In this document: positions 3,144 to 31,265 of the stretch, piece after piece
Layout of the letters: each line of letters begins with the position of its first letter
Position numbering within the stretch: the first letter of the stretch is position 1
From: Candidatus Hermodarchaeota archaeon
Lineage (GTDB): Archaea; Asgardarchaeota; Heimdallarchaeia; Hodarchaeales; Hodarchaeaceae
Direction of reading: 5' to 3'
Assembly (NCBI GenBank): GCA_048886185.1
Contig: JBHLKY010000014.1
Location: 1 to 32,000, forward strand
DNA: 32,000 nt
The notes under the pieces: model-generated
Told to the model about the DNA's origin: nothing
Database searches by the model: none
The model's input: the letters and a program-made list of their open reading frames with translations, nothing else
Position numbers and translations under genes: made by a program

Positions 3144-3565
3144 GGATCGCCAAGAAAGCCCAACAACGAGCTGCTGATTGGGTTCGTAATGCTGAAGTGG
3201 CATTGGAAGAAAACCGCTGGAATGATGTTGTATACAGTGCCCAGACGGCTGCTGAACAGTCCTTGAAGAGTATTTTGCTTGCCTTAGGAGTTTCCTATAA
3301 GAAGGTTCATGATATTAGTGTCCCCTTTCGTTTACTGAGGAATGAGGAGATTCTCTCTGAGCAGTTTCGCACTCGAATCCCGATCTTTGCCGAATGGCTT
3401 ATTCAATTGACTCATGAAAGACATTTAGCGGGATATGGTTTTGAGGAGGATCTGGAAGAGGACTACTTCAAAGACTATGCGCCTCAAAGTCTGGATAAAT
3501 GCAAGGAGATTCATAAGACCTGTATACTAGAGCTTGACAGAATTTCGAAAAGGTTGTTCAACTAA
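3107..3565 (+). CDS. HEPN domain protein (COG2250-like), partner of the MNT
   Basis: Typical HEPN N-terminus (AEVALEENRWNDVVYSAQTAAEQSLKSIL), KVHDI motif, ERHLAGYG in place of the RY motif; 37-nt overlap with the MNT gene. Confidence 0.85.
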   Translation: MDRSKNNVERYLRIAKKAQQRAADWVRNAEVALEENRWNDVVYSAQTAAEQSLKSILLALGVSYKKVHDISVPFRLLRNEEILSEQFRTRIPIFAEWLIQLTHERHLAGYGFEEDLEEDYFKDYAPQSLDKCKEIHKTCILELDRISKRLFN

Positions 3566-4552: not shown

Positions 4553-5494
4553 TTAACTCTTTTTTTTCCGATTGGTTGTTTTCTTGTATAGCTCTGCTAG
4601 ATCATCTAGATCAACATCATCTATTAAATCCTTGATTTCTTTATCAAGATTAGATTTCTTACTCACTGAAGAATTTGCTTTAATCTCATCTAGTACCGTT
4701 CTTAGTTCTTCTTCAAAGCTTCCTTTCACTAGCACAGAACTCTGTAATTTTGCTTGTCCCTTTTGAGTCAACCTGTAAACTTGATCGTGCTTGACAAATT
4801 CAATCTCCCCACTAGCTAATAATTGACGTAGAATTCTCATAATTTTATCTCTATCGTACTCCACTTGTCCTGTTTTCGAGATAATCTCTAATTGACCGAG
4901 TATTGATAAGATAGGCAGTCCCGTTTCATGACCATTAATCATATCCAAGATGTAAATGGTGAGGAACCTCGAGAGTCTGTCGGGTAGTGTTTGATCTTCT
5001 TCTGTTAACCGATTCTTGATCCAAGTAAGGACAAGTTCAAAATCCTGTGGTCTTTGTGCTGTACTCGAAAACACCCTATGTGGTCGATCAAGCCTGTTTA
5101 GGATATCTAACTGTTCGATAATGCCTGAAGGATGGACTTGAGCGATATCCTTCTTATGGAAAAGAATCGCCAAGGGTTTTCCTATTGAATGTGGGTGATT
5201 AAGTATTTTCTCAAATTCAGGGATTACTTCTGAAAACCTTCCTTCATCACTGCCATCAATGACGAAGATTATAGCCTCTACATATTCAATAAATTTCGAC
5301 ACAAAACCTCTTACTTCTTTTCTTCCCCCAACTTCTATGATATTGAAAGTTGTTGTATTAAGTGTAATTTCCGATGTATGTTGAGCTGTAGCAGGGGTTC
5401 CTTGAGTGAATAGTCCTTGCTGAAAAGAGTTAATCAAGGTAGATTTTCCACTTTTTTCTAATCCATATAATAGTACCTGAATAGAAATTGGCAG
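4553..5494 (-). CDS. Arf-like small GTPase fused to a C-terminal winged helix; start extended to CTG at 5494 (313 aa)
   Basis: The frame continues upstream of the ORF-track TTG (5437) as CTG CCA ATT TCT ATT CAG GTA CTA TTA TAT GGA TTA GAA AAA AGT GGA AAA TCT ACC = (M)PISIQVLLYGLEKSGKST (P-loop), bounded by TAG. G3 is IEVGG; IIFVIDGSD; G4 is FHKKD; wHTH DRDKIMRILRQLLASGEI...YRLTQKG. Confidence 0.85.
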   Translation of the reverse strand: MPISIQVLLYGLEKSGKSTLINSFQQGLFTQGTPATAQHTSEITLNTTTFNIIEVGGRKEVRGFVSKFIEYVEAIIFVIDGSDEGRFSEVIPEFEKILNHPHSIGKPLAILFHKKDIAQVHPSGIIEQLDILNRLDRPHRVFSSTAQRPQDFELVLTWIKNRLTEEDQTLPDRLSRFLTIYILDMINGHETGLPILSILGQLEIISKTGQVEYDRDKIMRILRQLLASGEIEFVKHDQVYRLTQKGQAKLQSSVLVKGSFEEELRTVLDEIKANSSVSKKSNLDKEIKDLIDDVDLDDLAELYKKTTNRKKKS

Positions 5495-5643
5495 TTTTGT
5501 CCCCTACTAATGAGGTATTATTAATTTATTATAAGAGGATTTATTTATTTTTAGTTTTTCTTTGTTACACTATAACATCCTAATCCTTTAAGTCATGAGA
5601 TTAAATCATGTTTAACAGTTAAGAACACCAGGGATAGAATCAT

Positions 5644-7818
5644 ATGTCTACAACAGATCAGGAAATTACATTTGGACATGCAACTATTCATCCTAAGAAT
5701 GATGTTGTCGCAGGAAGTTATGGAACTTGGATTCTGACCCTAACGGTTGGAACACATGGTATAGATGATGGAGGACACATTAGAATCGCGTGGAGAGACG
5801 TTTCTGATTGGAGAAGACCTCAATTCTCGAATCCAACTCTACCAAACTACACCACTGTTACCACAACAGGAAAAGCGGAATTGGATGTCTGTTTTGAGAA
5901 TAGAGGCTATATTCGTCCATGGAGGCCCTGTTTAACCATCACGATATATGATGGGTTTTTAGCGATGGGGGATACTGTAACTGTCATTTATGGGGATACC
6001 AGTGAAGGAGGACCTGGTTCCATGGCTCAAACGTTTGTAGAAGATAGTTTTGAGTTCCGAGTTCTTGTGGATCCTTTTGGAACGGGTCAATATGAAATAA
6101 TTGATGACTCCCCTGTTCTGGAAGTAGTTGCTGGGGAACCAGAGACACTCCAAGTAACAGCTCCATCAGAGACAGTAATTGAGAATCCCACGTGGTTTTC
6201 TATAAAAATAGAAGATAAATGGGGAAATCTCACGAAGAATTATACTGGAACAGTGACGTTTTCTTCCAGTGATCTCCAAGTAAGTCTTCCAAAGCCATAC
6301 ACTTTTAAATCTGAAGATAGGGGGAGTCATCGATTTGAGAATCTCACCTTCCACACCGCTGGGATTCATAACATCACTGTTTCTGATGTGAAAAGCAAAT
6401 TAATCACTATAAGTAACCCTGTTGTTGTTTATAAAGATCCAATGGAATTAAAGTTATACTGGGGAGACCTACATGGACAAACAGAAGAAACCATTGGCAC
6501 TGGAACAGTTGATCAATATTTTCGTTTTGCTCGGGATGCTGCGGCGCTTGATTTTGTATCTCATACAGGAAACGACTTTCAAATCACCAATGATCACTAT
6601 CAGGACACTCAAAGAATAGTAAAAAAATATCATGTCCCAGGAAGATTTATCACCTTTCTTGGCTATGAATGGTCAGGGAATACCCCATCAGGGGGAGACC
6701 ATAATGTCTACTTCTTTAAAGATGACCAATCTATACATCGAAGTAGTCATACTCAAATAAAGGATAAATCAGATATTGAAACTGATCGTTACCCTATTCC
6801 CCGACTATTTGATACTTTTCGTGGAAGAAATGATGTTTTGATTGTTCCACATGTCGGAGGACGCCATGCAGTTTTGGATTATTATGATTCTTCATTAACA
6901 CCATTTATCGAGATTTCATCTGTACATGGGCACTTTGAATGGTTTGCTCGAGATGCAATGAAGCGAGGGTTGAAAGTTGGTTTTATTGGAGGCAGTGATG
7001 ACCACACCGGCAGGCCTGGAGGAGCACGGCCCACTTCAATGGTTGAGGCTGTAATTGGTGGGCTGATGGCTACTTACGCAAGGAATTTAACTCGAGAATC
7101 CTTATGGGATGCCTTTCGAAAGCGTCATGTCTATGCTACTACTGGAAAAAGAATCATCTTGCGTGTTACGTGTGGTGATGCGATGATGGGAGACGAACTT
7201 ACCCTTAATCATCCTCCAACGATATTTGTGAAAGTATTTGGTACATCTGGTTTAGAAAAAGTAGAAATTATCAGGGGAACAGATGTTGTGTATGTCCATC
7301 AATTGAATCTGTCCAAAAAATTGCCTAATATGATCAAGATAGTGTGGAGTGGTGCTAGAGTAACTACCAGACGAAGAAACACTGATTGGAGTGGGGAATT
7401 CACAATCGAAAAGGGGAAAATTCTATCAGCCAAGGAGTTTGCTTTTGATCTTCCATGGGATGGAATCATTAAACAGACAGAACAGAGGGTGTGTTGGTCC
7501 TCAACAACTTCCGGGGATTCTGATGGAATTATTCTAAAAGTAGAGGCATCAGATGAGACTTGGATGACATTCAACACAGAAATTGCTCATATTTCCTTCC
7601 AACTAACCCAACTACAGAAACCATTGATCTTGGAAGCAGGAGGAATTGACCAAAAAGTGGAAATATCATATCTTTCAGAAAAACCAGCTTCAAATCATGT
7701 AACGTTTGAATATACTGATCGAGAGGTAAACCAAGGTGTCAACGCGTATTATGTAAGGGTTTTACAAGACGATGGAGAAAAAGCTTGGTCTAGTCCCATT
7801 TTTGTTAATTTTGAGTAA
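5644..7818 (+). CDS. DUF3604-family PHP-like metal-dependent hydrolase with Ig-like N-terminal domains
   Basis: YWGDLHGQT, GYEWS..GGDHNVYF, PHVGG, GFIGGSDDHTGRPG, YATTG and the terminal YYVRVLQDDGEKAWSSPI are characteristic of DUF3604. Confidence 0.85.
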   Translation: MSTTDQEITFGHATIHPKNDVVAGSYGTWILTLTVGTHGIDDGGHIRIAWRDVSDWRRPQFSNPTLPNYTTVTTTGKAELDVCFENRGYIRPWRPCLTITIYDGFLAMGDTVTVIYGDTSEGGPGSMAQTFVEDSFEFRVLVDPFGTGQYEIIDDSPVLEVVAGEPETLQVTAPSETVIENPTWFSIKIEDKWGNLTKNYTGTVTFSSSDLQVSLPKPYTFKSEDRGSHRFENLTFHTAGIHNITVSDVKSKLITISNPVVVYKDPMELKLYWGDLHGQTEETIGTGTVDQYFRFARDAAALDFVSHTGNDFQITNDHYQDTQRIVKKYHVPGRFITFLGYEWSGNTPSGGDHNVYFFKDDQSIHRSSHTQIKDKSDIETDRYPIPRLFDTFRGRNDVLIVPHVGGRHAVLDYYDSSLTPFIEISSVHGHFEWFARDAMKRGLKVGFIGGSDDHTGRPGGARPTSMVEAVIGGLMATYARNLTRESLWDAFRKRHVYATTGKRIILRVTCGDAMMGDELTLNHPPTIFVKVFGTSGLEKVEIIRGTDVVYVHQLNLSKKLPNMIKIVWSGARVTTRRRNTDWSGEFTIEKGKILSAKEFAFDLPWDGIIKQTEQRVCWSSTTSGDSDGIILKVEASDETWMTFNTEIAHISFQLTQLQKPLILEAGGIDQKVEISYLSEKPASNHVTFEYTDREVNQGVNAYYVRVLQDDGEKAWSSPIFVNFE

Positions 7819-7886
7819 AGAAGTTAGGTACTATTCTGTCAAAAGTCTCTAACTTCTATTTTGATCGATCTCTTTTATCCGAGGTA

Positions 7887-8204
7887 TTATTCCTCAATGC
7901 GCTCCATTTTAAAGATGACTGGTCGAATTCCATCCGTACAGCACGCTATCATCGTATCATCATCTTTCATCCAGTTCCATGAGTACGAACCGAAATTACC
8001 TCCAGTCATAAGGGCTAACAGGAGTCTATGAAGGTCATGCCAGGCATATCCACAAAATCCTTCAGGCATTTGCATGGGGCTTTCAGCTATGAACTCATCC
8101 CCTACTTTAAATTTTGTACATATTCCAGTCTTAGATTTACAATATTCATCAGCCAATTCCTGATTAACAGTAAGTTTTAACACACTTATTTTGCATTTAA
8201 CCAT
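7887..8204 (-). CDS. TIGR04076-family small Cys-containing protein (start moved to MVKCK, 105 aa)
   Basis: KCKISVLK...CTKFKVGDEF...PEGFCGYAWHDL...IACCTDGIRPVIFKMERIEE matches the family pattern; the upstream 34 codons of the ORF call look non-coding. Confidence 0.8.
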   Translation of the reverse strand: MVKCKISVLKLTVNQELADEYCKSKTGICTKFKVGDEFIAESPMQMPEGFCGYAWHDLHRLLLALMTGGNFGSYSWNWMKDDDTMIACCTDGIRPVIFKMERIEE

Positions 8205-8709
8205 TATTTTGTCCCCTATAGTGGAATGTAAAATTAATTTGAACGTTTTATCTAAAACTCTTTCTAAACTGGCAAAAAAATAATGTATTTTTTTGAAATT
8301 AAACACCCAATATTTAACTCTCTCCAGAATAACCCTTTGGATACTATCGACTTCTGTTTCTCAGTCAAACAACATTAAATTCTGGGACAATTGAAAATTT
8401 TCTTCCTATTTTATGTTTTTTTGTCATCTCACTCATTATAACCCCATTTTAACGAGTAACAAGATATATTATCAGACTAAAATTTAATGAAACAGAAAAT
8501 GGTCTTCAAGTGTTACAGAGGAAACTGTAATGTTTTTGTACGGTTATCTCCGCAAATTAGAGAATTTTTTCTTTTGAATAACTGCCTCTAGAGAAAAATT
8601 TTTAAAATTATGATTAACTGAGATTTACAAAACGGATTTTGACCATTTAGAAGGAGCTATCATTTCTTTAAGTGATCTCTCCAGATAGTATTTTTAATTT
8701 CAGAAGTGA

Positions 8710-9918
8710 TTGCGTATGTATAAGATAAGAAAGGGGGAAGAAAGGGACAGACATGCTGTAGTCGAAATGTTGAGTAGAGCATTAGGTGAACTAGAAACTT
8801 TTGAGGATTATTGGATTGATTCTTGGAGAGAATATTGGAATCGTCCTGAAAACGATGATTATGCGTATGTTGCAACTTATAACGACCATGTTGTTGCCAA
8901 TCTTGCTTTTTTTGTGAATGATGGCTTTAATTGTATAAGGGGAGGAGGCCTCAAATTTGGAGGAATCTGGGCAGTCGGGACTGAAGAAGCACATCGACGA
9001 AAAGGACTTCTTACACAATTGTTCTCAGAATCATTTCCAGCAATGAAGGAAAAAGGAGTTGTACTCTCAATCTTGGATCCTTCTCCTTATCATGGAGCTC
9101 AATTAGCTTATGAGAAGTCTGGCTATACACTTGCTGAAAAACGAGTAAAATATATTTTTCATCCTAGTACTCTACGGTTGACTAAAAGTGCTCAAAACAT
9201 AATATTTAGAAAATTGGAAGATTCTAGTGATTATCGTAAAATTTCTGAGCTTGAATTATCCATGAGTCGTTACGGTTCCCGAGTGTTCACTTGGCCATTA
9301 ATATTTCAACGTCAAATTGATTCTGGGCAGTTTTATGTATTCGATAGTGGTGGAAAAATAATTGCTTGTATTCGGATCACTCTTAGCAAGGAAAATGTCC
9401 TCAATATATCCTCGGCTTATTTTACTTCTTTAGATGTATTTCCAACTTTAATTAACTTCATTAAACAAAAATCCTCTGGACTAGAGCGGATTGAATGGGT
9501 TTGTGACCCACAAATTCCAATATGGAATTACCTTCAGAATATTTCCAGAGTTAATATTCAAAATAAAGGAACAATGATGATGAGGATTGTTGATTTTAGT
9601 GGATACTGTGATTCAATACGAGTAGCGGATGAAGTAGAAGATGAGGTCATATTAAGATTAGTGGATGACCAATGTCCTTGGAATGAAGGAATATACAGGC
9701 TCAATTCTTCAGAAGGGAAACTGGTAGCTGAAAAAATAGACATTAGAAAAGATTATGATATTGAACTCCTTCCGTTGCAGTTATCACAAATTACCTGTGG
9801 TTTAACTTCCTCAATGATACTCAGGGAACTTGGGGAGATCTCTTGTTCTCTTGAAACTGCGAAGAAGCTAGATTCAATGTTTCCAGCTGACTATTTCTTG
9901 TCATATTTCAGGTTTTAA
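8710..9918 (+). CDS. Eis-like GNAT acetyltransferase with a C-terminal SCP2-like domain
   Basis: VGTEEAHRRKGLLTQL acetyl-CoA motif, AYEKSGY, MMRIVDF, LRLVDDQCPWNEGIYRL, QLSQITCG. The real start may be ATG 8716. Confidence 0.85.
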   Translation: MRMYKIRKGEERDRHAVVEMLSRALGELETFEDYWIDSWREYWNRPENDDYAYVATYNDHVVANLAFFVNDGFNCIRGGGLKFGGIWAVGTEEAHRRKGLLTQLFSESFPAMKEKGVVLSILDPSPYHGAQLAYEKSGYTLAEKRVKYIFHPSTLRLTKSAQNIIFRKLEDSSDYRKISELELSMSRYGSRVFTWPLIFQRQIDSGQFYVFDSGGKIIACIRITLSKENVLNISSAYFTSLDVFPTLINFIKQKSSGLERIEWVCDPQIPIWNYLQNISRVNIQNKGTMMMRIVDFSGYCDSIRVADEVEDEVILRLVDDQCPWNEGIYRLNSSEGKLVAEKIDIRKDYDIELLPLQLSQITCGLTSSMILRELGEISCSLETAKKLDSMFPADYFLSYFRF

Positions 9919-9976
9919 CTAGCAATATCTATTAAGGAGATCATTTTTTCACCTTAAGTTAGGATGGTAACAGTTA

Positions 9977-11548
9977 ATGGCAGTAAAAAATTACCCGAGT
10001 ATTTTCAATGACGTTATAGGCCCAATAATGCGAGGACCGTCAAGTTCTCATTGTGCTGCTTCTGTTCGTATTGGTAACTTAGCGAGGGACATGATGGGTG
10101 GCACCATAAAAGAAATTCTGATAGAGTTTGATACAAAAGGTGCTTTAGCTACTACACATGAAAGCCAAGGTTCGGATATGGGATTGTTTGGAGGATTTCT
10201 TGGATGGAAAGCGTATGATGAACGATTAGTTGATTCTGTAAAAGCAATCAAGGAAGCAGGTATTAAAATAAGCATAGAGATAAAAGATATCGGCGCTAAA
10301 CATCCAAACACCTATAAATTAACTCTAAAAAATGATCAAGAAATCCATGAAATAGTAGCTATCTCGTCTGGAGGAGGAATGATAGAAATAGTTAAGATTG
10401 ACGACTTTAAAGTCTCAATGGTTGGAGACTATTATGAGACATTAATTTATACTACTGATCTTGGAGTTCTGAATTATTTACAAAGTATATTATCCAACGA
10501 TGAGATTTTAATTCACAGGGGTATGGACTCATTTCTTTTAGAAGTGAAAGCTCAGAGATTTTTGGGTGAAAGTACTCTCCAAAAAATTTACTCAGAGTTT
10601 AAAACATTGAATATTATCCAATTAAATCCTGTTCTGCCTGTGCTTTCTTGGAAAGGGATGAGAGTGCCATTTATAAATTATGATGAGATGCTTAAATATA
10701 ATGAGAATAAAAACATGGACTTATGGGAACTAGCTGTTCATTATGAAAGCCAAAGAGGTAACATTCCAATCGAAGATGTTATCAAAAAAATGAAGCATAT
10801 TGTTGAGATCATGGGAAAATCAATCTTAAGGGGAATAAAGGGGACTCATTACAAAGACAGGATATTGGATCACCAATCAGGCTTCTTTAAGACTAAAATG
10901 AAAAATAAGAATTTGCTTGATGGGGGAATCTTGAATCAAATGATTCTTTATATCACTGCAATGATGGAAATAAAGAGCTCCATGGGAGTAATAGTTGCTG
11001 CTCCGACTGCAGGTGCTTGTGGAACAATACCAGGGGCCCTTCTTGGAGCAGCTCATAGGATGATGCTTTCAGAAGATGAGGTAGTAAAAGCCATGTTTGC
11101 TGCAGGTATGATAGGAATATTCATTTCTAATAAAGCAACTTTCTCAGCTGAAATTGGAGGATGTCAAGCTGAATGTGGATCAGCCTCTGGAATGGCGGCT
11201 GCAGGTCTTGTAACTCTTATGAAGGGTAATACAAAACAAGCAGTTGATGCTGCATCAATGGCATTACAAAATATATTTGGTATGGTATGTGATCCTGTAG
11301 CAAATAGAGTAGAAGTTCCTTGTCTTGGGAAAAATGTATTGGCTGCAAGTAATGCACTTGCAGCAGCGAATATGGGTCTAGCAAATTTTGATGCAGTAAT
11401 ACCTTTGGGAGAGGTAATTGAAGCAATGAATGAGGTGGGACTAAGTATTCCATATGAATTGAGATGCACGGCCTTGGGTGGGTTATCTGTGACGAAGACA
11501 TCTAAAAGATTAGAGAAAAAGCTTAGAAACAATTTATTAATCGATTAG
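9977..11548 (+). CDS. sdaA: Iron-sulfur-dependent L-serine dehydratase, fused beta+alpha chains
   Basis: SIFNDVIGPIMRGPSSSHCA (beta chain), APTAGACGTIPG, GGCQAECGSA, CDPVANRVEVPC, ELRCTALGGL (alpha chain, with Fe-S cysteines). Confidence 0.9.
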   Translation: MAVKNYPSIFNDVIGPIMRGPSSSHCAASVRIGNLARDMMGGTIKEILIEFDTKGALATTHESQGSDMGLFGGFLGWKAYDERLVDSVKAIKEAGIKISIEIKDIGAKHPNTYKLTLKNDQEIHEIVAISSGGGMIEIVKIDDFKVSMVGDYYETLIYTTDLGVLNYLQSILSNDEILIHRGMDSFLLEVKAQRFLGESTLQKIYSEFKTLNIIQLNPVLPVLSWKGMRVPFINYDEMLKYNENKNMDLWELAVHYESQRGNIPIEDVIKKMKHIVEIMGKSILRGIKGTHYKDRILDHQSGFFKTKMKNKNLLDGGILNQMILYITAMMEIKSSMGVIVAAPTAGACGTIPGALLGAAHRMMLSEDEVVKAMFAAGMIGIFISNKATFSAEIGGCQAECGSASGMAAAGLVTLMKGNTKQAVDAASMALQNIFGMVCDPVANRVEVPCLGKNVLAASNALAAANMGLANFDAVIPLGEVIEAMNEVGLSIPYELRCTALGGLSVTKTSKRLEKKLRNNLLID

Positions 11549-12534
11549 ATCTCAACAATAATCCCTTTTTTCATTTCTTTTGCCTTCATATACGCCAATT
11601 TAGCTGCAGCAGCATCTTGAATTGCTAGCCCGACCGATTTAAAGAAAGTAATTTCTGATTCATTTTCCCTTCCTTTCTTTTTTCCACTTACAATTTCTCC
11701 AAGTTCCGCATAGATATGTTCTTTTGTTATAACACCCTCTTTAATAGGAATAATGAGATCACCAGCTTCATCAAGACAGGCACTTACTTGATCACACACA
11801 ATTTTTGCTTTTTGTATTGTTTCTGTATCCACTTCTCGTCTTTCTGGAGTGTAGGAACCAATAGCTGAAATATGAACTCCAGGTTCGAGCCACTTCCCTT
11901 TAAATACTGGATTTGGAGATGTTGTAGCTGTTAAGATTATGTCTGATCCTCTTACTGTCTCTTCCGCTGATTTAGCTATTTGAAAATCTGTTATACTTAG
12001 TTTCTTAGACATTTTTCGCTTAAAATCTTCTGCTATTTTTCTTTTAACATCATATACTTTACAAGTTTCTATACTAGGCCGAACCTCACATGCTGCCCAT
12101 AACTGAAATGTTCCCTGTACACCAGTACCAAAAAGGCCGACAGTTTTTGCATCTCTTTTTGCTAAATACTCTATTGCGCACCCTGAAACAGCTCCTGTAC
12201 GTATTGCCGTTAAATACCCTCCATCCATTATGGAAACGACGTCGCCTGTCTCAATATCTTGTAAGAGTACTTTTCCAAGAATGGTTGGTAACTTGAATTT
12301 CTCTGGATTGTGTTCAAATACAGTAACAACCTTCACAGCCATAGATTTCAATTGAGGAAGAAAAGCAGGCATATAAAGACTTGTTCCATCTTGTACTGGT
12401 ATTACAATTCGTTGTGGAAGAACAGCTGTCCCTTCTGATAGTTCCTTAAAGGCAGTTTCAATTACGTTAATTGTTTCTTTCATTGTGAGAACGGATTCAA
12501 CATCAGCTCTAGATAGCATCAAAACTTTACTCAT
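11545..12534 (-). CDS. Ornithine cyclodeaminase/mu-crystallin family protein (possibly archaeal alanine dehydrogenase)
   Basis: MDGGYLTAIRTGAVS, GLFGTGVQG, HISAIGS...REVD, EAGDL, FFKSVGLAIQD. Confidence 0.9.
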   Translation of the reverse strand: MSKVLMLSRADVESVLTMKETINVIETAFKELSEGTAVLPQRIVIPVQDGTSLYMPAFLPQLKSMAVKVVTVFEHNPEKFKLPTILGKVLLQDIETGDVVSIMDGGYLTAIRTGAVSGCAIEYLAKRDAKTVGLFGTGVQGTFQLWAACEVRPSIETCKVYDVKRKIAEDFKRKMSKKLSITDFQIAKSAEETVRGSDIILTATTSPNPVFKGKWLEPGVHISAIGSYTPERREVDTETIQKAKIVCDQVSACLDEAGDLIIPIKEGVITKEHIYAELGEIVSGKKKGRENESEITFFKSVGLAIQDAAAAKLAYMKAKEMKKGIIVEI

Positions 12535-12760
12535 AATTCAAACCACATCATTTTTGGATGAAAATATTTAATCTCGATTTTCGAATCTGGGTATGGGGTC
12601 GCTTAAAATAACTTTCTCTTTAATTAATGGATGTGTTCTAAAATTTTTGTAAAGAACTATAGGTTGGAGACTTAATCTCCTTACATGTTTTGTAACTTAA
12701 AGACCTACTAACTCCTCTATAGCAAGAATATTCTTAAAAGTGTTTTTTAACTGCCCAAAT

Positions 12761-13954: not shown

Positions 13955-13969
13955 TGATTTTTCGTGTGT

Positions 13970-14773
13970 TTAGATATAGTATCCTGGACCTCTGTCCTTC
14001 TCCTCTTCTTCTCCTTGTTCTAAGACTTCTCGTGCTAAAGAAGTTATACGTTCATTCTTAACCTGTGCTTCTTCTATTGAAAGATCTAGATCTTTTAATT
14101 CTAATTTCAGCGGGTAGAGTTTGGCAAGTTTTTTCAAGAGTGCTTTACTAGCTTTGGGATCCGTTCCAGCTAGAGTGAGTTTTCCTAGCAATCCGAAACT
14201 TTTCAAGTTTCTTTCTGCTGCCAATGCAGAGAGTACTCCTACAGCTCCAGTCACTTCTCCTCCCTTTAAAAGAGTCACATCGTTTTTCTCTAGCCAATCT
14301 AACGTCTCCTTATCGTATCCGAATCCGGCTACTTCGGGGCCTTCTTCGTGGACTCGTAATCCTCCCAAACATATCAAAGTGTCTGCATTGAGCTCTATAA
14401 CATAATCAAGTACATTATTTAATACTTGGATAATCCCAATATCATGTGGTTGGGCGTCGCCTGTCAGAATTATCAAGTTAGGTGTGGATTTAGTAATCGC
14501 ATAGATTTCCATCCGTGCTAGCCTCCCTATACTTGTTTTACTGTCTATTTGTACTACTGGGGGAAAGAAAGAGCTGTAAATTCGTGCTATCTCTTGTGCT
14601 TCGAAATGATTGATTAAATAATTGGCTGCAATTTTTCCTATTAGACCCATTCCTGGTAATCCCTGAATAGCTACTGCGGGTGACTTAATCTTGACATCTG
14701 ATACCTTATGTAAATATGTAAATGTATTTCCATTACTTTGGCGCAATAATGACTCCTCAATTAACATTAACAT
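13970..14773 (-). CDS. PAC2-family proteasome assembly chaperone / activator (PbaA/B-like) with a C-terminal HbYX motif
   Basis: IQGLPGMGLIGKIAANYL, SSFFPPVV, ILTGDAQP, IICLGG, GAVGVLSA, DPKAS; ends in GPGYYI. Confidence 0.88.
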   Translation of the reverse strand: MLMLIEESLLRQSNGNTFTYLHKVSDVKIKSPAVAIQGLPGMGLIGKIAANYLINHFEAQEIARIYSSFFPPVVQIDSKTSIGRLARMEIYAITKSTPNLIILTGDAQPHDIGIIQVLNNVLDYVIELNADTLICLGGLRVHEEGPEVAGFGYDKETLDWLEKNDVTLLKGGEVTGAVGVLSALAAERNLKSFGLLGKLTLAGTDPKASKALLKKLAKLYPLKLELKDLDLSIEEAQVKNERITSLAREVLEQGEEEEKDRGPGYYI

Positions 14774-14879
14774 GGAAGTATTTTATTGACTAGCTTTCAA
14801 AAATAAGGAGTGAATCCAAATAAAATGATAAAAATAAAATGTATCTTGGGTTCATTACTTGATAATTATTGATCTTATC

Positions 14880-16895
14880 TCACTGATTGGCAATTTCTGA
14901 TGTTGGATTTACCCATGTTTCTTGAATTTTCTTCGCTTCCACCAGCCAGCTAGCTATCTGTGCATGTTCGATACGCTCTTGAATTGAGGCTTTTCTTTGT
15001 ATTAATTGATTCCATTTATCGAGTTCAGCTTGTACCGTTTCCTGTTCTGCTTTGATTTGTGTCAGTAGATTAACAAGTTTCTTCTCACTAGCTAATTTTT
15101 TAGCATTACTCAGTAGCTGACTTGCCTCTTCTACGTCTCCTTGTACCAATGCCAGTTTTGTTTGAAGTAAGAGTGACAGTATTGTCAATGAGGAGGATTG
15201 TTGACTGTTGGCAATAGTATGAAGCTGTGTTGAGAGCTGAATCACTTTATCAAGAAGTTCATCTGCTGTTTCAGAATATTTCATTTCTAGAATAAGCAAT
15301 TCACACAAATTCAACATCGATAAGACCGTGATATCATGACTGAAGATTTCCTCCTCAATAATTGCTTGAAATTTCTGTTGTGCTTGGAATTTCTCAGCCA
15401 TTCGTTTACTCATTTTCAAAACTATGGCTTCTGAAAACTGAATTCTTAATTTCACATATTTATTTTTGCTTGTTTGCTTAAGTTCTTGCATTTGTTTTAA
15501 ATAATCTTTTGCTAAATCTAGGGAATTGAGATTCTGGGCAACTAATATCAATTGAAGGAGAATATAAGAGACCCACAGACCCAAATTTGCCCCTATAATC
15601 GTTTCTTTTACTAATTTTATACCATCTTCTAAATATTTTATAGCCTGATCATATTCTCCTATAATTTTATAGATCCGACCAAGTTGAACATAAGAATTGG
15701 CAATTCCACCCTTTAGATCAAGTTTAGTGAAGATAGATTCACTTTCTTCAATATTTTTTAAAGCAGATTCGGGTTCACCACGTAAAATATTAGTCATTCC
15801 AATCCTAAGTAGGGTCCATGCAATCCCTGGATCACTTTCTGAGTCTTGAAATATTGACAAGCTTCTTTGATAATAATCTAAACCATGGCTAAGCTCCCCC
15901 TTCCAAATTGAATGAATATCACCAATGAAAATGGATATGAAAGCTTGAGAAATACGGTCACCAGTTTCTTCAGCAAGTAGTAAACTTTGGGTAAAATGTT
16001 GTTCAGCAAAAGATAGATTCCCTTTATAGGCATGAAGCCATCCGATATTGTTATGATTTATTATTAATGCTCGTTTATCGTCAAGTTCTTCAGAAATCGC
16101 TAAAGCTCGCTCTAAATAGTTCATTGTTAAATCATAATTTTCTTTTGCCCGATATACAAGAGAGATGTTATTATACAATCCTCCAATCCACTCTTTATTG
16201 TTGACGCTTTGATATAATGCAAGGCTCCTCTCAAAGTAAGATAGTGCTTCATCATAATTTTCTATCTGATGATAATAACAACCTAACCGATTAAGCGAGT
16301 GAGCAATCGCAGTGGGGTTTCCGAGTTTTTCACTGATTGCCAAACTTCGATTAAAAAGATCAAAGGCAAGATCCTGTTTCCCTGTTATATCTAAATGAAT
16401 GAACCCTATTGTAGTTAATGTTTCTACAACATCATGTTGGAATGGAAGGGCTTGTCTTATGATCAAGCTCTTTTCAAATAATTCTAATGCATGGTTAATA
16501 TTTCCTTTAGTCTCACTTATGGCTCCTTGTAAAAACGCTAGTGTTCCCTGACATTCTTGGAAAACATCATTTTTTACAAATTCAACTTGCGAAAAGAGGT
16601 GTTCTGCCTCTTGAAGGACTTTCGTTAATTCAGGAATATTTTGAAGGTTAAAATAAGCAGAACCCAAGCTTATCAATGCTTTTAGTACTTGTAACTCACT
16701 CCCAGAATCACGACACTCCGCGAGAATACTTTTTGCTTCAGCTAGGGCTTCTTTAGGATCCCCTTTTCGTTGTAATATTTGACTCTTGAGTATTATTCCA
16801 TCTAATCTCTTCTTTCCTTGTAACTCATCGATTGATTTTAGTGCTTGAGTGTATTTTCCTTGATCGATTAATTTTTTAATTTCTAGTATATCCAT
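14880..16895 (-). CDS. Tetratricopeptide-repeat protein
   Basis: Many TPR repeats (AHSLNRLGCYY...YDEALSYFERSLAL; GGLYNNISLVYRAKENYDLTMNYLERALAISEEL); likely start MDILEIKK at 16895. Confidence 0.85.
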   Translation of the reverse strand: MDILEIKKLIDQGKYTQALKSIDELQGKKRLDGIILKSQILQRKGDPKEALAEAKSILAECRDSGSELQVLKALISLGSAYFNLQNIPELTKVLQEAEHLFSQVEFVKNDVFQECQGTLAFLQGAISETKGNINHALELFEKSLIIRQALPFQHDVVETLTTIGFIHLDITGKQDLAFDLFNRSLAISEKLGNPTAIAHSLNRLGCYYHQIENYDEALSYFERSLALYQSVNNKEWIGGLYNNISLVYRAKENYDLTMNYLERALAISEELDDKRALIINHNNIGWLHAYKGNLSFAEQHFTQSLLLAEETGDRISQAFISIFIGDIHSIWKGELSHGLDYYQRSLSIFQDSESDPGIAWTLLRIGMTNILRGEPESALKNIEESESIFTKLDLKGGIANSYVQLGRIYKIIGEYDQAIKYLEDGIKLVKETIIGANLGLWVSYILLQLILVAQNLNSLDLAKDYLKQMQELKQTSKNKYVKLRIQFSEAIVLKMSKRMAEKFQAQQKFQAIIEEEIFSHDITVLSMLNLCELLILEMKYSETADELLDKVIQLSTQLHTIANSQQSSSLTILSLLLQTKLALVQGDVEEASQLLSNAKKLASEKKLVNLLTQIKAEQETVQAELDKWNQLIQRKASIQERIEHAQIASWLVEAKKIQETWVNPTSEIANQ

Positions 16896-17063
16896 GGCGG
16901 AAGTTCCGTTCCTTAATCGAAGGTTTGGTATCAAATATATTTCTGATATGAAAACTTTTCGTATATCTAGTGATTCAAGACCATTTTGAACAAGTCTATG
17001 ACAAGGTTTTTTCTTTTATTACCTAAGTCACGACATTAAAAGGCAGCTTCTGAAGAAGATTGA

Positions 17064-17972
17064 TTGGTTTTACAGATGCAAATAGTTTCACGTCCTTACA
17101 ACATTGATGAGGATTTTACCTCTGTTATGACTTTCTTATATGAAATCTTCAAGAAAACTAATTCTTATCAAAATTGGTTTCCTGATCGCTTTGAAAACAA
17201 CCATGATGATTATAAAGCTGATATTAGGATCTGGGAAGAAAAAACAGATTCAAAGATTGTTGCTGTTGCTAATCCAGAGACATCAAATATTTATTATATC
17301 CAAATTGACCCTACATATAATTTTCTCGAGCAAGAGATCGTGAAATGGATTGAAAAGCACTTCATGGCGAAGAAAAAAGATATTGAGACAAAAGGGAAGC
17401 TCATCATCAAAACTGTTGAGGGAAATCCCACTAGGGAATCATTACTTGCAGAGCTTGGCTATCAAAAAGCAGAGAAAATAGATTGTTATGTCAGAATACG
17501 TCCTAAAGACATGCCTGTTCCAGAAATCGAGTGTCCTGAGGGCATTGAGATTAGGAATGTGAAGGGAGAGGCTGATTATGAGCAACTAGCTCGGTTAATA
17601 CGATTAATATTCGGCCACGGCGAATGGTTTACACCGGAAATACTAGAAGGGATAGCTCGTTGTTCTTTCTATAAACAAGACCTCGACCTAGTTGCTGTTT
17701 CTGAAGATGGTACTTTTGCTTCGTTTTGTATGTTCAGAGTAGATCCTATGAGTAAGATCACCCAACTCGAACCAATGGCAACGCATCCAAACTTTAGGAA
17801 ATTAGGTTTGGCTAAAACACTCATATATGAAGGCCTCAGACGTGCGATGAAATACGACCCTTTGTTTTTCTATATTGGCGGGGCTGCTAATACTCCTGCT
17901 GCCAACCGATTATATGATTCAGTTGGATTTGTTGAGAAATTAGCCGAGTACACCTGGTACAAAGGGATTTAG
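17064..17972 (+). CDS. Tandem-GNAT N-acetyltransferase
   Basis: LEPMATHPNFRKLGLAKTLI and AANRLYDSVGF; N-terminal degenerate GNAT domain; alternative start ATG 17076. Confidence 0.85.
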   Translation: MVLQMQIVSRPYNIDEDFTSVMTFLYEIFKKTNSYQNWFPDRFENNHDDYKADIRIWEEKTDSKIVAVANPETSNIYYIQIDPTYNFLEQEIVKWIEKHFMAKKKDIETKGKLIIKTVEGNPTRESLLAELGYQKAEKIDCYVRIRPKDMPVPEIECPEGIEIRNVKGEADYEQLARLIRLIFGHGEWFTPEILEGIARCSFYKQDLDLVAVSEDGTFASFCMFRVDPMSKITQLEPMATHPNFRKLGLAKTLIYEGLRRAMKYDPLFFYIGGAANTPAANRLYDSVGFVEKLAEYTWYKGI

Positions 17973-18008
17973 AGCCATTTTGAAGAAAAAAAAGGACAAA
18001 AGACATTA

Positions 18009-20291
18009 TTATTTCTTATGTCTTCTTCTAAGAATAACTAAACTGATGAAAAGCAAAGGAATAATAAATATACTTGGAAATGTACTTTTTCTTGGGAGAC
18101 TTTCTGCTGATGAAGTAGTTTCCAGTGTTGATTTAGTATCTTCTTTTGATGTTATGGTTGAGGGTATTATCGTTGTTATTTCAGTCTGTTCTGGACAAAC
18201 TGGAGACGTAATGGAGGGAATGAGGAAAGTTGAAATCAGACGACTTATATCAGCTCCTTCTGATGTATAGACCACCACAATATCAAGTTCAGGGATTATA
18301 TATATTTTCTGAGTGTTAAATCCCCATGCAAAGTAACTTTTAATGTTACAATCAGTGAACGATGTGAACCACACTTGATAACCATATTGATTCGTGCTTC
18401 CTAGGTGAGGATTACTTCTTGTAGCATTCTGTATCCATTCCGAGGACACGATTTGTTTCCCATTAAAGGGCCATGTTCCATTTTGTAGATATAAATATCC
18501 AATTTTTGCCATGTCTTGGGGTGTTAAATAGAGCCCTGAACCTCCACGTGCAACCCCTGATGGATCCAAAAACCATAAAACATCCCCTGCTGTAATATTT
18601 AGCGGATCAAAAAGATATTCTTGAGCGAAAGAAAGAGTTGTACGCCCTGTTACTTTCTGGATGATAACAGACAATAGATGAGACCCACCTGTGTTATAAT
18701 TAAATACCGTCCCTGGGTCAAAATCCATTGGACGATCAAGAACATATTGGGCCCAATCAGGACTTTCAACCATTAAACGATATGAGTTTCCTGGATCACT
18801 AGTTGCAATGTTCCATTCTGCCCAGTTCATCCCCGAAGTCATAGTGAGTAAGTGTTCGAGGGTCAGTGCCTCCTTTCGAGAGTCTATGTTCGAGATATTG
18901 CGATCAGGGAAAAAATCTAAGACTTTCTGATGCACACTGTCAATATATCCCATTTCAATGGCGATTCCCACTAGTAGTGAGGTTATACTCTTAGTACAAG
19001 AGTAAATGTAATGTTTGCAATCTCTAGTATAAATGTGATTATTGGTCTGATAATATTGTTCTGCAACGAGATACCCATTGCGTAGGACAAGAAAACTATG
19101 AGCCAGAGGATTATATTGTTGTATATAATCAGTCATATCGTTTATTAATGCTGAATTCATTCCTTGAGCCTCCGGACTAGTTGTTTGCCAGAAGGAAGCT
19201 CTTGGAGGGATTAGTGGATTGTCCCCCCAGAGCTTGATTGTCCAGTCCTCACTACCTGAAGCCAGTATAGAACCGTCAGGAGAAAAATCTAGACTCTTAA
19301 TAGAATTAGTATGACCTGATAAAGTCCACAGATTTTCACCAGTCGTAATATTCCAAATTTTAATATTAGCATTATTTAGAGGCCATGGAGAAAACTTACC
19401 TCCACCAGAAGCCAACAAACCAGTTGGTGAAAAACTAACAGATAGAACAACGTCTTCTTGACTCTCTAAGGTATCAATGAGAGTACCTGTCGATGTATTC
19501 CATATTTTGATTGTCCCATCCCTACTTGCTGAAGCGAGATTCTTCCCATCAGGTGAGAATGCGATTCCTTTCACTGCAGCTGTATGGTTTACCATTTCTC
19601 TTAATTCCTCACCTGTTGACATGTTCCAGAACTTGATGCTACTATCTCCACAGGCTGTGGCTAACACATTACTATCAATGGGAGACAAGGCTACTGCATT
19701 CACCATGTCATTATGTGTTAAATTTTGGATAATCAGTCCGTTTGTTAAGTCCCAGATTCGGACTGAACCAGAAATACCAATTTTTCCTTCTCCAGAGATT
19801 AGTAACTTGCCATCAGGTGAAAATCTAATTTCATTACCCATTTCTTCTTGTATTGGTAATGTTTGTAATATGGTTTCTGTAGTAATATTCCAAATTCTAA
19901 TGGTCCCGTCTCGGGCTGTAGAGGCTAAAAGACCCTCCTCGGAAAAACATACACCATAAACGAAATTTGTATGTCCGTAAAGGACACTGACAAAAGAACC
20001 ATCACTTGTATTCCAAATCCGGATAGTCCCGTCAAATCCTCCAGCGGAAGCTAGATATTTTCCATCAGAAGAAAAAGCAATATCATTAACCCCAGCGCCA
20101 TGTCCTTTTAGTGTGGCGAAATTATTAAACTCATTAAAGCTTCCAATTTGTGATCTGGTTTTGACGTCAGTTTCATTTACTATCATACTATTGTGGTTAT
20201 TTCCATTTTGTACTATTACAACAGGAATAATTATAAGAATGATAGCTATTGCTATCAATGTAGAGGCGAACTTTTTCTTATTAAATATCAT
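18009..20291 (-). CDS. Surface protein: signal/TM, 7-blade WD40 propeller, AmpC/beta-lactamase-like serine hydrolase, Thr/Ser stalk, C-terminal TM
   Basis: KKKFASTLIAIAIILIIIPVVIV; seven GH...IW(N/D/G) repeats; SxxK (YSCTKS), FNYNTGG, LTPQDMAKIGYLYLQNGTW, AWGFNTQKIYIIPELDIVVV; tail FPSIFIIPLLFISLVILRRRHKK. Start taken at MIFNKKK. Confidence 0.88.
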   Translation of the reverse strand: MIFNKKKFASTLIAIAIILIIIPVVIVQNGNNHNSMIVNETDVKTRSQIGSFNEFNNFATLKGHGAGVNDIAFSSDGKYLASAGGFDGTIRIWNTSDGSFVSVLYGHTNFVYGVCFSEEGLLASTARDGTIRIWNITTETILQTLPIQEEMGNEIRFSPDGKLLISGEGKIGISGSVRIWDLTNGLIIQNLTHNDMVNAVALSPIDSNVLATACGDSSIKFWNMSTGEELREMVNHTAAVKGIAFSPDGKNLASASRDGTIKIWNTSTGTLIDTLESQEDVVLSVSFSPTGLLASGGGKFSPWPLNNANIKIWNITTGENLWTLSGHTNSIKSLDFSPDGSILASGSEDWTIKLWGDNPLIPPRASFWQTTSPEAQGMNSALINDMTDYIQQYNPLAHSFLVLRNGYLVAEQYYQTNNHIYTRDCKHYIYSCTKSITSLLVGIAIEMGYIDSVHQKVLDFFPDRNISNIDSRKEALTLEHLLTMTSGMNWAEWNIATSDPGNSYRLMVESPDWAQYVLDRPMDFDPGTVFNYNTGGSHLLSVIIQKVTGRTTLSFAQEYLFDPLNITAGDVLWFLDPSGVARGGSGLYLTPQDMAKIGYLYLQNGTWPFNGKQIVSSEWIQNATRSNPHLGSTNQYGYQVWFTSFTDCNIKSYFAWGFNTQKIYIIPELDIVVVYTSEGADISRLISTFLIPSITSPVCPEQTEITTIIPSTITSKEDTKSTLETTSSAESLPRKSTFPSIFIIPLLFISLVILRRRHKK
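19225..20105 (-). repeat. Seven WD40 repeats (protein-level repeat)
   Basis: Seven ~42-aa units, most containing FSPDG or FS-x-x-G and ending I(R/K)(I/F/L)W; boundaries approximate. Confidence 0.85.
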
Positions 20292-20359
20292 AACTACCAA
20301 TTCCATCGTAATTTGAATATAAAACATGTTAATGATATCTATTATAAAAATGTTTTCAT

Positions 20360-20378
20360 AAAAATTATAATAATTTTT
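20360..20378. promoter_or_regulatory. Inverted repeat in the AT-rich divergent intergenic region; possible operator
   Basis: AAAAATTA-TAA-TAATTTTT (8-bp arms) between the WD40 gene and the TrmB-like regulator. The region is very AT-rich, so chance is plausible. Confidence 0.3.
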
Positions 20379-20449
20379 TTATAATACCAATATTATTTTA
20401 AAGTAATGTAATAACTCAATTTTAACTATCAAATTCGGTTGAATGAATC

Positions 20450-21607
20450 TTGGAAAGGTTATCACAAGAGATAGAAGAAATTTTCACTTTTGAACCACTC
20501 ATTATGGATGCCTTAAACCATAGCGTTACAGATCAACATGTTCGTGTTTTAGCGATGATGTTCAAACTTGGTGGTTATACCACTCTAAATGTTTTAACAA
20601 AAAAATTAGCCATCGCACAACCAACCGTTAGTAAGAGAGTAGCAGAGCTAGAAGACATGGGATTTATCAGAAAAAATTCAGAATTGAAACCTAAAGTGCT
20701 TGTTCTCCTTCTAACTGTTGAAGATCTTAAAACCAGATTAAATCTGAAGATTACTTCTCAACGGGCTGCTTCATCCTTCTTGCAAGAAATCTCACAAATC
20801 AAAGATAAACAGGCAATAATAGATGCTTTTAACAAAGCAATAAAGCTACTCTATCCCAATGAAGAATTGATAGCAAAAATGATTGTTTTTACTTATCTTC
20901 ATGGTACGATTCAGAGAAATGATCTAATCAAATTAATAGATCCCTCGGGAAAGACTATAATGAAATTAAATCGTGATATAGATGTAATATTGACGCTATA
21001 TCCAACGATCTTTAATACAATTTATTATAAATACCAAAAATCAAGTACATTTATTCAACCACGCCTCCCTCTGGATTCCTTTGCGAAAGCTCGGCTTATA
21101 CTTCTTGAATCAATACATTATAATCAAAATCTACTATTAGAGAGAATCGGTCAATTCATTGGGATTGAATTTGATGCAATTATTCCTCATCAACCATTAC
21201 CAAGTATTCCTGACATTGAACACCGAATAAATACCTGTTTAAAATATTATGAGACAGTAAAAATTATAGATAACTCTATTTATCAAAATAGATTTGTAAA
21301 TGGAGGATTATTAGAACTAATAGCATCAAGTAATCATTTTACAAATAATCACAACTTAAAAATGTTAACAAACCATTCCATTAGCATACCGTCAAATATG
21401 ATCTTGTCACAGATTAAACAAAAGCCTATAACAGAACCTATTAATCGCGACTACATTACACGTGATTTTATTATCTTTGAAGAACATGGATGTCTAGTTA
21501 TCCCTTCTAAAGTTAGTAGTCCTCCCTATTATCATATTGCACCTAAATTTACAAAAACTATTTCAAATATCTTTAACACAAATTGGAGGAGTACTAATGC
21601 TGTCTGA
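20450..21607 (+). CDS. TrmB-like transcriptional regulator with two wHTH/coiled-coil modules and a C-terminal PLD-like effector domain
   Basis: LTKKLAIAQPTVSKRVAELEDMGFI (HTH); a second, degenerate module ending FIQPRLPLDSFAKARL; C-terminal RDFIIFEEHGCLVIP...APKFTKTISNIFNTNW as in TrmB effector domains; TTG start. Confidence 0.7.
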   Translation: MERLSQEIEEIFTFEPLIMDALNHSVTDQHVRVLAMMFKLGGYTTLNVLTKKLAIAQPTVSKRVAELEDMGFIRKNSELKPKVLVLLLTVEDLKTRLNLKITSQRAASSFLQEISQIKDKQAIIDAFNKAIKLLYPNEELIAKMIVFTYLHGTIQRNDLIKLIDPSGKTIMKLNRDIDVILTLYPTIFNTIYYKYQKSSTFIQPRLPLDSFAKARLILLESIHYNQNLLLERIGQFIGIEFDAIIPHQPLPSIPDIEHRINTCLKYYETVKIIDNSIYQNRFVNGGLLELIASSNHFTNNHNLKMLTNHSISIPSNMILSQIKQKPITEPINRDYITRDFIIFEEHGCLVIPSKVSSPPYYHIAPKFTKTISNIFNTNWRSTNAV

Positions 21608-22181
21608 ATTTTTAAGAATGATTAAAGGCTTTTTATTAGTAATTGGCCCAACTAAAGCTGGGAAAACAAGCATTTTGAGACGACTGGTAACGGGGGAATT
21701 TACAGATCAAGAACCAACACTCGGATTTCGTGAAGAAACCATAGCAAAAGTTAGAATTATAGAGATTGGAGGACAGAGAGATTTTAAAAAGTATTGGACT
21801 GAAGCCCTTAATCAGAACCCAGTACACATTTTTTTTGTTATTGATGTGACAAGTAAAACCGATTTTAACGACTTTAATATTTTTGTTAAGGAAAATCAGA
21901 AGAGATTCCCCGAAATATTAGAACATACAATCTTAATTGTAAATAAAATGGATTTAGTCTCTGCATTGCCACCTTATATCCTTAAAAACAATCAAATTAT
22001 CGAATGCAGTGCTAAAACGGGGGAAGGTTTACTCGATTTATTGGAACTAATAGCTAATTTCAAGGATGTAGCTGAAGCTAAGATTTTAATCAACCATAGC
22101 GAGAGAGAAGATAAAATAAGTGAAAATGAAGATAAAGAAATAGCTAAAGCTATTTTAAAAAAGTATGAAGGGAAATTTTAA
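21597..22181 (+). CDS. Arf-like small GTPase (start moved to ATG 21597, 194 aa)
   Basis: GPTKAGKT (G1), EPTLGF (G2/switch I), IEIGGQ...YW (G3 variant), FFVIDV, NKMD (G4), CSAK (G5). GGAGG Shine-Dalgarno 6 nt before the ATG; 11-nt overlap with the upstream regulator. Confidence 0.9.
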   Translation: MLSEFLRMIKGFLLVIGPTKAGKTSILRRLVTGEFTDQEPTLGFREETIAKVRIIEIGGQRDFKKYWTEALNQNPVHIFFVIDVTSKTDFNDFNIFVKENQKRFPEILEHTILIVNKMDLVSALPPYILKNNQIIECSAKTGEGLLDLLELIANFKDVAEAKILINHSEREDKISENEDKEIAKAILKKYEGKF

Positions 22182-28527: not shown

Positions 28528-28568
28528 GAAATCTCAACTTACCAGGTTACATAGCTTACTCCAACTGA

Positions 28569-29714: not shown

Positions 29715-29774
29715 GATTTAATCTCCAGAAAGTACTTAATTAAGAAATTAGAGAGAATTAGAAGTAAGTTGTTT

Positions 29775-30389: not shown

Positions 30390-30391
30390 TT

Positions 30392-31051: not shown

Positions 31052-31103
31052 CGGTTAAATCATCTCATTAAATTTATTGATGTATAATTATCAAACTTAT
31101 CAG

Positions 31104-31116
31104 TTATAAAGTCTTC
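31104..31116 (-). promoter_or_regulatory. Candidate BRE/TATA promoter for the ESCRT-III/Vps4/Vps25 block
   Basis: Minus strand GAAGAC-TTTATAA about 53 nt upstream of the TTG start at 31051. Confidence 0.45.
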
Positions 31117-31265
31117 AGATGTACCTTAAGTTAGAAATACTTAAATCTTTCCCATAAGTACCCCTTGACGGCTTCTGATGGTTTAAAAATGATGATATAC
31201 GTGTTTTAATTGTAAGTTCTGAAAGAATATAGTCTAAATAAACTATTCTTCTTTCAAGGAAGGTA

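Follow-up and report, generated by a model that had tools for sequence, protein, structure and literature searches.

A two-gene unit within bases 1–32,000 of contig 14 (JBHLKY010000014.1) of a Candidatus Hermodarchaeota archaeon of the order Hodarchaeales, a stretch referred to here as the window, encodes a TrmB-like protein (R) followed by a divergent Arf-family GTPase (GTPase B). As judged from their sequences, R and B appear to be a conserved, translationally coupled operon of Hodarchaeales. A partnership between the two is well supported and very probable, and control of R's putative DNA-binding activity by the GTPase is plausible, with chances a little short of even. The best reading of the locus is that of a membrane-proximal GTPase switch that may act on a TrmB-like regulator, a tentative reading that could almost as well be right as wrong. 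New in this analysis are a recurrent third gene beside R and B, which encodes a conserved region designated the T-domain, and a second operon of the same layout on contig 63. The window also encodes GTPase A, an Arf-like GTPase fused to a winged helix. A first-pass annotation had singled out both GTPases and suggested that they act as nucleotide switches on transcription factors rather than on membranes.

Gene linkage supports a partnership. In the window, GTPase B starts at an ATG at position 21597, behind a GGAGG, and R stops at a TGA at 21605–21607, giving the 11-nt overlap that the first-pass annotation had described; the operon is bordered by opposite-strand genes. GTPase B follows R on the same strand in all 11 loci fetched from other genomes of the genus and in all 15 full-length loci of close relatives that have named records (under the names Candidatus Hodarchaeota/Hodarchaeales and Heimdallarchaeota B3_Heim, with some records labelled Promethearchaeota, Thorarchaeota or Odinarchaeota). 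The link of this GTPase to a winged-helix protein, noticed originally in a single window, is hence a recurrent one. The named-record loci include two copies each in three genomes, and the pair has therefore been duplicated as a unit. Junctions between the genes are either overlaps of 4–11 nt or gaps within about 20 nt, and the 11-nt overlap is repeated in locus L078. Among 18 tightly linked same-strand neighbours of other GTPases in the genome, no match with any winged helix-turn-helix (wHTH) Pfam family was found; these neighbours are Roadblock, RagA-like, metallophosphatase, KaiC, HEAT, gelsolin or unnamed proteins. Fusion of R to a GTPase was not seen in any of the 34 R-family clusters, all of which are 223–395 aa long and lack an Arf domain. 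At one locus in a relative (L008:2620-2640), R and B share a reading frame in which TGA AGT is all that stands between R and the start ATG of B, and readthrough of the TGA would yield an R-B fusion.

Co-folding of R with GTPase B gave a score of 0.46 against 0.00 for the best control, and the predicted complex, suggested by the first-pass annotation as a check, thus stands above its controls with weak support. In calibration, 58 of 80 solved complexes and 2 of 110 mismatched pairs attained this mark, though with scores of 0.60 or under in just 7 of the 80 and in both mismatches. The R-B runs, for which own alignments were used, share at least 79% of their contacts, and the pLDDT (predicted local distance difference test) of the partner is at least 73.

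The description of R as a TrmB-like regulator holds at the level of fold. Its AlphaFold2 model (pLDDT 87.6) consists of a first winged helix (wH1), a helix, a second winged helix (wH2), a long helix and an alpha/beta domain. Structure comparison aligned R with TrmB (3qph; Z 11.3 over residues 119–385, 220 aligned, root-mean-square deviation (rmsd) 18.9), with the sugar-binding effector domain of TrmB (2f5t; Z 11.0, 127 aligned, rmsd 3.5) and with TrmBL2 (5bpd; Z 10.4, 230 aligned, rmsd 16.0; Foldseek E 1.8e-5). PLD-fold nucleases are also among its best structural matches, and the catalytic HKD motif is not present in the PLD-like domain of R. Winged helix, long helix and PLD-like effector domain thus occur in one chain as in the TrmB family, a correspondence seen at fold level only. 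Scanned alone, residues 1–110 match MarR_2 at 29.2 bits, above the cut-off of 27, and a recognition helix of the form QPTVSxRV is invariant across relatives at 37–71% identity. Median net charges are +4 for wH2 and +6 for the PLD-like domain; the latter is a large, conserved domain of sensor type with no match to a small-molecule family. Neither tblastn nor a profile search found a paralog of R in the genome.

GTPase B belongs to the Arf family on several counts. Pfam Arf (PF00025) is its best family, at 55.8 bits against a cut-off of 22.3, and its family profile finds Arl3, Arl1 and Arf1 (E about 1e-14) as the top matches in the PDB. The protein has an N-terminal amphipathic helix (MLSEFLRMIKGF), followed by G1 (GPTKAGKT), G3 (EIGGQ...W), G4 (NKMD) and G5 (SAK) motifs, and an acidic tail that ends in GKF. 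The Arf G3/switch II pattern DxGGQxxxRxxW is departed from in that EIGGQRDFKKYW has Glu for Asp, the Gln and Trp being kept. The family comprises 83 clusters and is sharply bounded: EIGG[QH] is found in 83 of 83 and the C-terminus is always xGKF. Its N-terminus (MLSDFLRLIKGF) is conserved throughout as an invariant Arf-type amphipathic helix ahead of strand 1, with a hydrophobic moment (muH) of 0.72–0.73 that exceeds 99% of shuffles.

A third conserved partner, the T-domain protein, appears from its sequence to be usually membrane-anchored, often with the T-domain on the cytoplasmic side. In the window it is a TPR protein encoded convergently to R and B. A T-domain profile found only three genes in the genome, namely this one, a gene on contig 11 and a gene divergent from the contig-63 operon, so that two of the three copies lie beside the two operons. 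With a deeper profile, the domain was detected at 12 of 20 further R-B loci, at 8 of 11 loci of the contig-63 type and at none of 12 GTPase A loci. At most R-B loci it sits behind a hydrophobic helix and a basic stretch, and at some behind NosD/beta-helix and FN3 parts. Worldwide, 135 representative clusters carry it, with TPR or beta-helix N-termini, and in other lineages T-domain genes occur in operons with canonical DVGGQ Arf-like GTPases. None of 80 members matched a Pfam family, no PDB sequence match was obtained, and comparison with the genome's own Roadblock proteins gave an hhalign probability of 0.9%; the nearest language-model neighbours, an NPR2 cluster (0.85) and a Robl cluster (0.79), serve as leads only. 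One T-domain protein beside R-B in a Hodarchaeota genome (L067:5219-5458, minus strand) has an extra C-terminal wHTH-like tail (…TLDEIAQEAEYDLSATEKNLQTLIELGYVK…) that aligns in register with wH1 of R (hhalign E 0.025, probability 2%).

On contig 63, a gene for a 514-aa protein is followed 7 nt downstream by an Arf-like GTPase, and the pair is conserved in 10 loci. With its divergent T-domain gene, this operon repeats the three-part layout of the R-B locus. The 514-aa family aligns with wH1 of R and the helix that follows it over 91 columns (hhalign E 1.4e-3, probability 17%), and the language-model neighbours of the protein are archaeal HTH regulators at 0.90. The resemblance to R is weak, and 'TrmB-like' as a name for the contig-63 protein is a lead.

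Action of the GTPases 'rather than on membranes', as first proposed, is not supported, because GTPase B keeps its invariant Arf-type amphipathic N-terminus; the third partner, too, is usually membrane-anchored. The mechanism probably involves the membrane rather than bypassing it. In a mechanism of this kind, in which complex formation, the direction of signalling and DNA binding are steps that we infer beyond the observed gene linkage, folds and motifs, the T-domain protein would determine, at the membrane, which nucleotide the GTPase carries; GTPase B in its GTP form would then bind R, with the PLD-like domain, which in TrmB is the site of sugar binding, as the most likely contact, and this binding would either alter DNA binding by R or keep R at the membrane. 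An extension of this scheme to a Hodarchaeales pathway of three parts, from membrane-anchored T-domain sensor through Arf-like GTPase to TrmB-like transcription factor, with GTPase A as its single-chain form, is unlikely as matters stand. The Mlc repressor of E. coli, which is held at the membrane by PtsG, offers a working analogy only: it is likewise a DNA-binding regulator controlled by binding to a membrane signalling protein, but it has no homology to R-B, and the Mlc/PtsG system involves no GTPase.

GTPase A is a separate conserved protein encoded outside the R-B neighbourhood, although it could represent the same principle realised in a single chain. Its fusion to a winged helix, reported at first pass, was confirmed by three lines of evidence: a best match to Pfam Arf (83.9 bits against the same cut-off), a predicted fold and a conserved family. 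The AlphaFold2 model (pLDDT 80, predicted template modelling score (pTM) 0.75) superimposes its G domain on Arf6 (3lvr; Z 24.2, rmsd 1.8, 163 aligned), with Arl13B and Sar1 as the next solved matches (Z 24.2–21.5, Arf6 included). Residues 173–251 are modelled as a winged helix (H173-187, H195-207, H215-228, E231-234, E239-242), with pLDDT 80–91 over residues 171–250, for which the ESM-Atlas structural neighbours are PadR, DUF4364 and HTH_45 (TM 0.63–0.79 by query); the arrangement of a PadR/HTH_45-like wHTH (H1-S1-H2-H3-S2-W-S3; Y.LT.KG) is thus present at fold level. The family contains 71 clusters, most of them 283–341 aa long, with query coverage of 90–100% and identity of 42–71%, and about 70 have the full-length build of G domain and winged helix. 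Glu54, Gly56, Gly57 and Arg58 are invariant. Relative to the Arf G3/switch II pattern, EVGGRKEVRGFV has Glu for Asp, Arg for the catalytic Gln and no Trp, and there is no N-terminal amphipathic helix, only 3–4 residues preceding strand 1, as in relatives. At the C-terminus (LDELAELYKKTT-RKRK), a conserved acidic helix is followed by a basic tail. Single copies of the C-terminal half were found in 18 of 20 genomes from the genus, and a search for it elsewhere in 301 genomes of the phylum returned only a weak match in G151 (E 2.3e-4). The neighbours of GTPase A are not conserved, except for a convergent M20 peptidase gene in 7 of 11 loci.

The start of GTPase A is probably non-canonical (ATT or CTG), unless the gene is damaged at its 5' end. 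No ATG, GTG or TTG lies ahead of the P-loop in its frame, where a TAG (5506–5504), 12 nt upstream of a CTG (5494), is followed by the codons GGG ACA AAA CTG CCA ATT TCT ATT, the two ATT codons being at 5488 and 5482. A non-canonical start is suggested because, besides this lack of a standard start codon, the Met of P0004, a cluster representative 99% identical to GTPase A, falls at the position of the second ATT.

The Glu in G3 noted originally in both GTPases is real and invariant in both families (EVGGR in GTPase A, EIGGQ in GTPase B). It is confined to these 2 of the genome's 66 small-GTPase paralogs identified by Pfam Arf matches, 60 of which have Asp. This Glu prompted consideration of membership in the G3E family (SIMIBI), which was rejected, as both proteins match Arf by profile and GTPase A also does so by predicted fold. 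The tail motif N-x-D-K-E-I, thought at first pass to be shared by A and B, falls in linkers that are variable in both families and is not conserved.

Several observations weigh against a membrane-proximal switch that acts on a DNA-binding regulator. The match of R to the TrmB-type wHTH family PF01978 (E 0.024, 14.9 bits) stays under the cut-off of 25.6, and Regulator_TrmB (PF11495) gave no match in residues 100–385 at E up to 10, a search of the own genome with this family yielding matches on C18 and C11 and none on C14. By word count, TATA-like words apart, no operator upstream of R is common to 16 loci; the top word is present in 8 of the 16, a count that shuffles reach in 6 of 100. The single hydrophobic segment of the window's TPR protein with the T-domain is borderline, and sequence searches with the T-domain yielded no link to a known GTPase regulator. 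R-B is, moreover, a lineage-specific module, because R was found in 13 of the 21 genus genomes other than this one, while the rest of the order yielded a single weak match (G070, E 1.7e-9, 25% identity). On the side of GTPase A, the HTH_45 match of the winged helix is sub-threshold (E 0.03) and its median net charge is 0; winged helices also serve protein-protein contacts. The lack of an operator and the sub-threshold Pfam match of R equally favour a rather unlikely alternative, in which R is not a transcription factor and a TrmB-like descendant has been reused as a scaffold, effector or regulator of the Arf-like GTPase, acting in the manner of a guanine-nucleotide exchange factor (GEF), GTPase-activating protein (GAP) or GDP-dissociation inhibitor (GDI). 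The winged helices of R would then make protein contacts as in ESCRT-II, and the module would act wholly at the membrane, for example in trafficking or on surface proteins. The retained Arf membrane helix of GTPase B, the extracellular domains of the usually membrane-anchored third partner, the alignment of wH1 with a winged helix of ESCRT-II (3cuq; Z 8.3 over 63 aligned residues, rmsd 1.6) and the pairing elsewhere of T-domain genes with Arf-like GTPases where an R-like gene is missing all point the same way. A scaffold role fits less well with a wH1 that passes MarR_2 and carries an invariant QPTVSxRV typical of DNA-reading helices, with the net positive charge of wH2 and the PLD-like domain, or with a whole build that matches the DNA-binding TrmB and TrmBL2. 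It is improbable, though archaeal wHTH repressors are in many cases encoded first in the operon under their control and the co-fold of R with B has weak support, that R is an ordinary autoregulated repressor and GTPase B mere cargo that it does not touch. Overlaps of 4–11 nt imply that the two proteins are translated together in a fixed ratio, the pair was kept together through duplication in three genomes, the PLD-like domain of R looks like a sensor for which no small-molecule family was matched, and the three-part layout recurs on contig 63 with a distantly similar partner.

Whether GTPase A belongs with the favoured reading of R-B as a membrane-proximal switch is a separate matter, and there is an even chance that the two instances in the window are unrelated, the winged helix of A being a protein- or RNA-binding module and the G3 Glu having arisen twice. 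The Rosetta-stone argument of the first-pass annotation, which took fusion in one locus and operon linkage in another as signs of one functional partnership, fails, as the winged helix of A has no profile similarity to R (hhalign probability 0.2%) and none of the 34 R clusters is fused to a GTPase. The occurrence of two instances in one window, which had seemed suggestive, involves two real GTPases but is not unusual with 66 in 4.84 Mb, and GTPase A and R-B lie 192 kb apart in the closed genome G058. That A has no conserved neighbours and no T-domain nearby in 12 loci, that it has neither an N-terminal helix nor the Trp of switch II and carries Arg in the place of the catalytic Gln, and that the G domains of A and B are 25% identical over 84 residues only also suggest separate origins. 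A profile-profile comparison of A and B gives a probability of 97%. A common origin is favoured by the restriction of the G3 Glu to these two paralogs, by the nearly equal taxonomic range of the two families and by phylogeny. Both families sit on long stems within the Arf-like half of the tree, and a tree constrained to a clade of A and B lies 8.5 log-likelihood units above the quick free tree, with p = 0.73 in the approximately unbiased test (p-AU). A single clade of A and B is thus not rejected, but the grouping of A with B may be a long-branch artefact, a further point against the pairing.

Among known systems, the closest to the GTPases are the Asgard ArfR/AArf proteins, with which A and B share Arf-family G domains in Heimdallarchaeia/Hodarchaeales, and from which they differ in having Glu instead of Asp in G3 and, in A, Arg for the catalytic Gln. 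HodArfR1 has an amphipathic N-terminal helix and binds membranes in yeast (Vargova et al., bioRxiv 10.1101/2024.02.28.582541; Nat Commun 2025, PMC11914678); GTPase B resembles it in having such a helix without Gly2. R is like TrmB and TrmBL2 of Thermococcales (3qph, 2f5t, 5bpd) in its winged helix, long dimerising helix and PLD-like domain; unlike them, it carries an additional MarR-like winged helix at its N-terminus, gives no match to Pfam Regulator_TrmB and is without a second sugar-binding subdomain, and it is paired with a GTPase gene, not with sugar-metabolism genes. In bacteria, group 3 MglA is encoded beside a receiver-like/wHTH protein, and a link to transcription has been proposed (Wuichet and Sogaard-Andersen, 2014, PMC4316618). 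There, too, a prokaryotic Ras-superfamily GTPase gene adjoins a predicted wHTH gene; however, MglA is not Arf-like, its partner combines receiver and wHTH in place of a double winged helix with a PLD-like domain, and the system has no T-domain partner. A conserved Asgard operon that joins a Rab-like GTPase with candidate regulators, a Roadblock/LAMTOR1-like protein and a DENN protein (bioRxiv 10.1101/2020.10.19.343400), is comparable in joining small GTPase and regulator genes, whereas the R-B partners are a TrmB-like protein and an unnamed domain for which no Roadblock or DENN similarity was found. In strain MK-D1, GTPase genes lie generally outside operons with their regulators (PMC10933270). 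A text search of Asgard small-GTPase papers (10.1101/2024.02.28.582541, PMC11914678, PMC10933270) returned nothing on fusions to winged helices, on partners of winged-helix or TrmB-like type, or on operon links.

Asgard genomes encode dozens of small GTPases each, to which partners can rarely be assigned. The R-B locus provides a matched set for an Arf-family GTPase of Hodarchaeales, in the form of a TrmB-like protein strictly inherited together with it and of an unnamed domain that recurs, and all of its proteins are small enough for expression and testing. If the GTPase does control a DNA-binding protein, an Arf-like switch would be in use outside membrane traffic; if R is instead an effector on the membrane side, it would represent a novel type of Arf partner. 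Either outcome bears on the role of Arf ancestors before eukaryotes. Should the three-part pathway prove true, part of the Arf radiation would have been devoted to signalling towards DNA earlier than, or alongside, membrane traffic. Positions of the features discussed are collected in Table 1.

Table 1. Features of the R-B locus and of GTPase A, in window coordinates.
Feature	Position	Strand	Residues	Description or basis
R	20450..21607	+	385 aa	TTG start; TrmB/TrmBL2-like; AlphaFold2 model and fold searches
R wH1	20513..20719	+	22-90	
R wH2	20855..21070	+	136-207	
R long helix		+	208-237	
R PLD-like domain	21179..21604	+	244-385	Non-catalytic
Presumed R promoter	20328..20449	.		AT-rich intergenic; between divergent WD40/beta-lactamase gene and R
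GTPase B	21597..22181	+	194 aa	Divergent Arf-family GTPase; Pfam, family profile, motifs
TPR protein	22214..24505	-	763 aa	Convergent to R-B; TPR (about residues 100-440) by Pfam
T-domain	22217..22714	-	about 600-763 (~150 residues)	C-terminal part of TPR protein; no named family
GTPase A	4553..5494	-	313 codons from CTG 5494	Arf-like G domain and winged helix
GTPase A G domain	4991..5494	-	1-168	EVGGR, HKKD; P-loop GLEKSGKS
GTPase A winged helix	4721..4987	-	170-258	Predicted fold
GTPase A linker, conserved acidic helix and basic tail	4556..4720	-	259-313	Family alignment

The presumed promoter of R contains a 23-nt tandem pair and TTATAA-type palindromes. Divergent from R lies a gene (18009..20327, minus strand) for a 772-aa protein that joins a WD40 beta-propeller to a beta-lactamase/transpeptidase-like domain; this gene is conserved beside R only in the closest relative (L070). 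Elsewhere in the window, a nucleotidyltransferase gene (2421..3143) overlaps a HEPN gene (3107..3565) on the plus strand (2421..3565), the usual layout of an MNT-HEPN toxin-antitoxin pair. A 580-aa NosD/beta-helix protein (426..2168, minus strand) has a weak MarR_2/HTH_24 match near its C-terminus (C14:573-731) and would be a further surface-type protein with a possible cytoplasmic wHTH. At the right end of the window, an ESCRT cluster (27748..31979, minus strand) encodes ESCRT-II (Vps25-like), Vps4 with a MIT domain (28569..29714), two Snf7 proteins and EAP30/Vps22-36; the C-terminal acidic helix and basic tail of GTPase A appear, by sequence, to bear a loose resemblance to MIT-interacting motifs. 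No RNA dataset containing window DNA was listed; the only runs that contain it are four of sediment DNA from one study, which may be its source. The genome as a whole is in 75 contigs and is 96% complete. On contig 30 of G000 (7592..11322, minus strand), five genes in a row on one strand encode Rag/Arf-like GTPases of 309 and 334 aa, a RagA-like protein of 318 aa and unnamed proteins of 264 and 183 aa, and resemble another GTPase operon.

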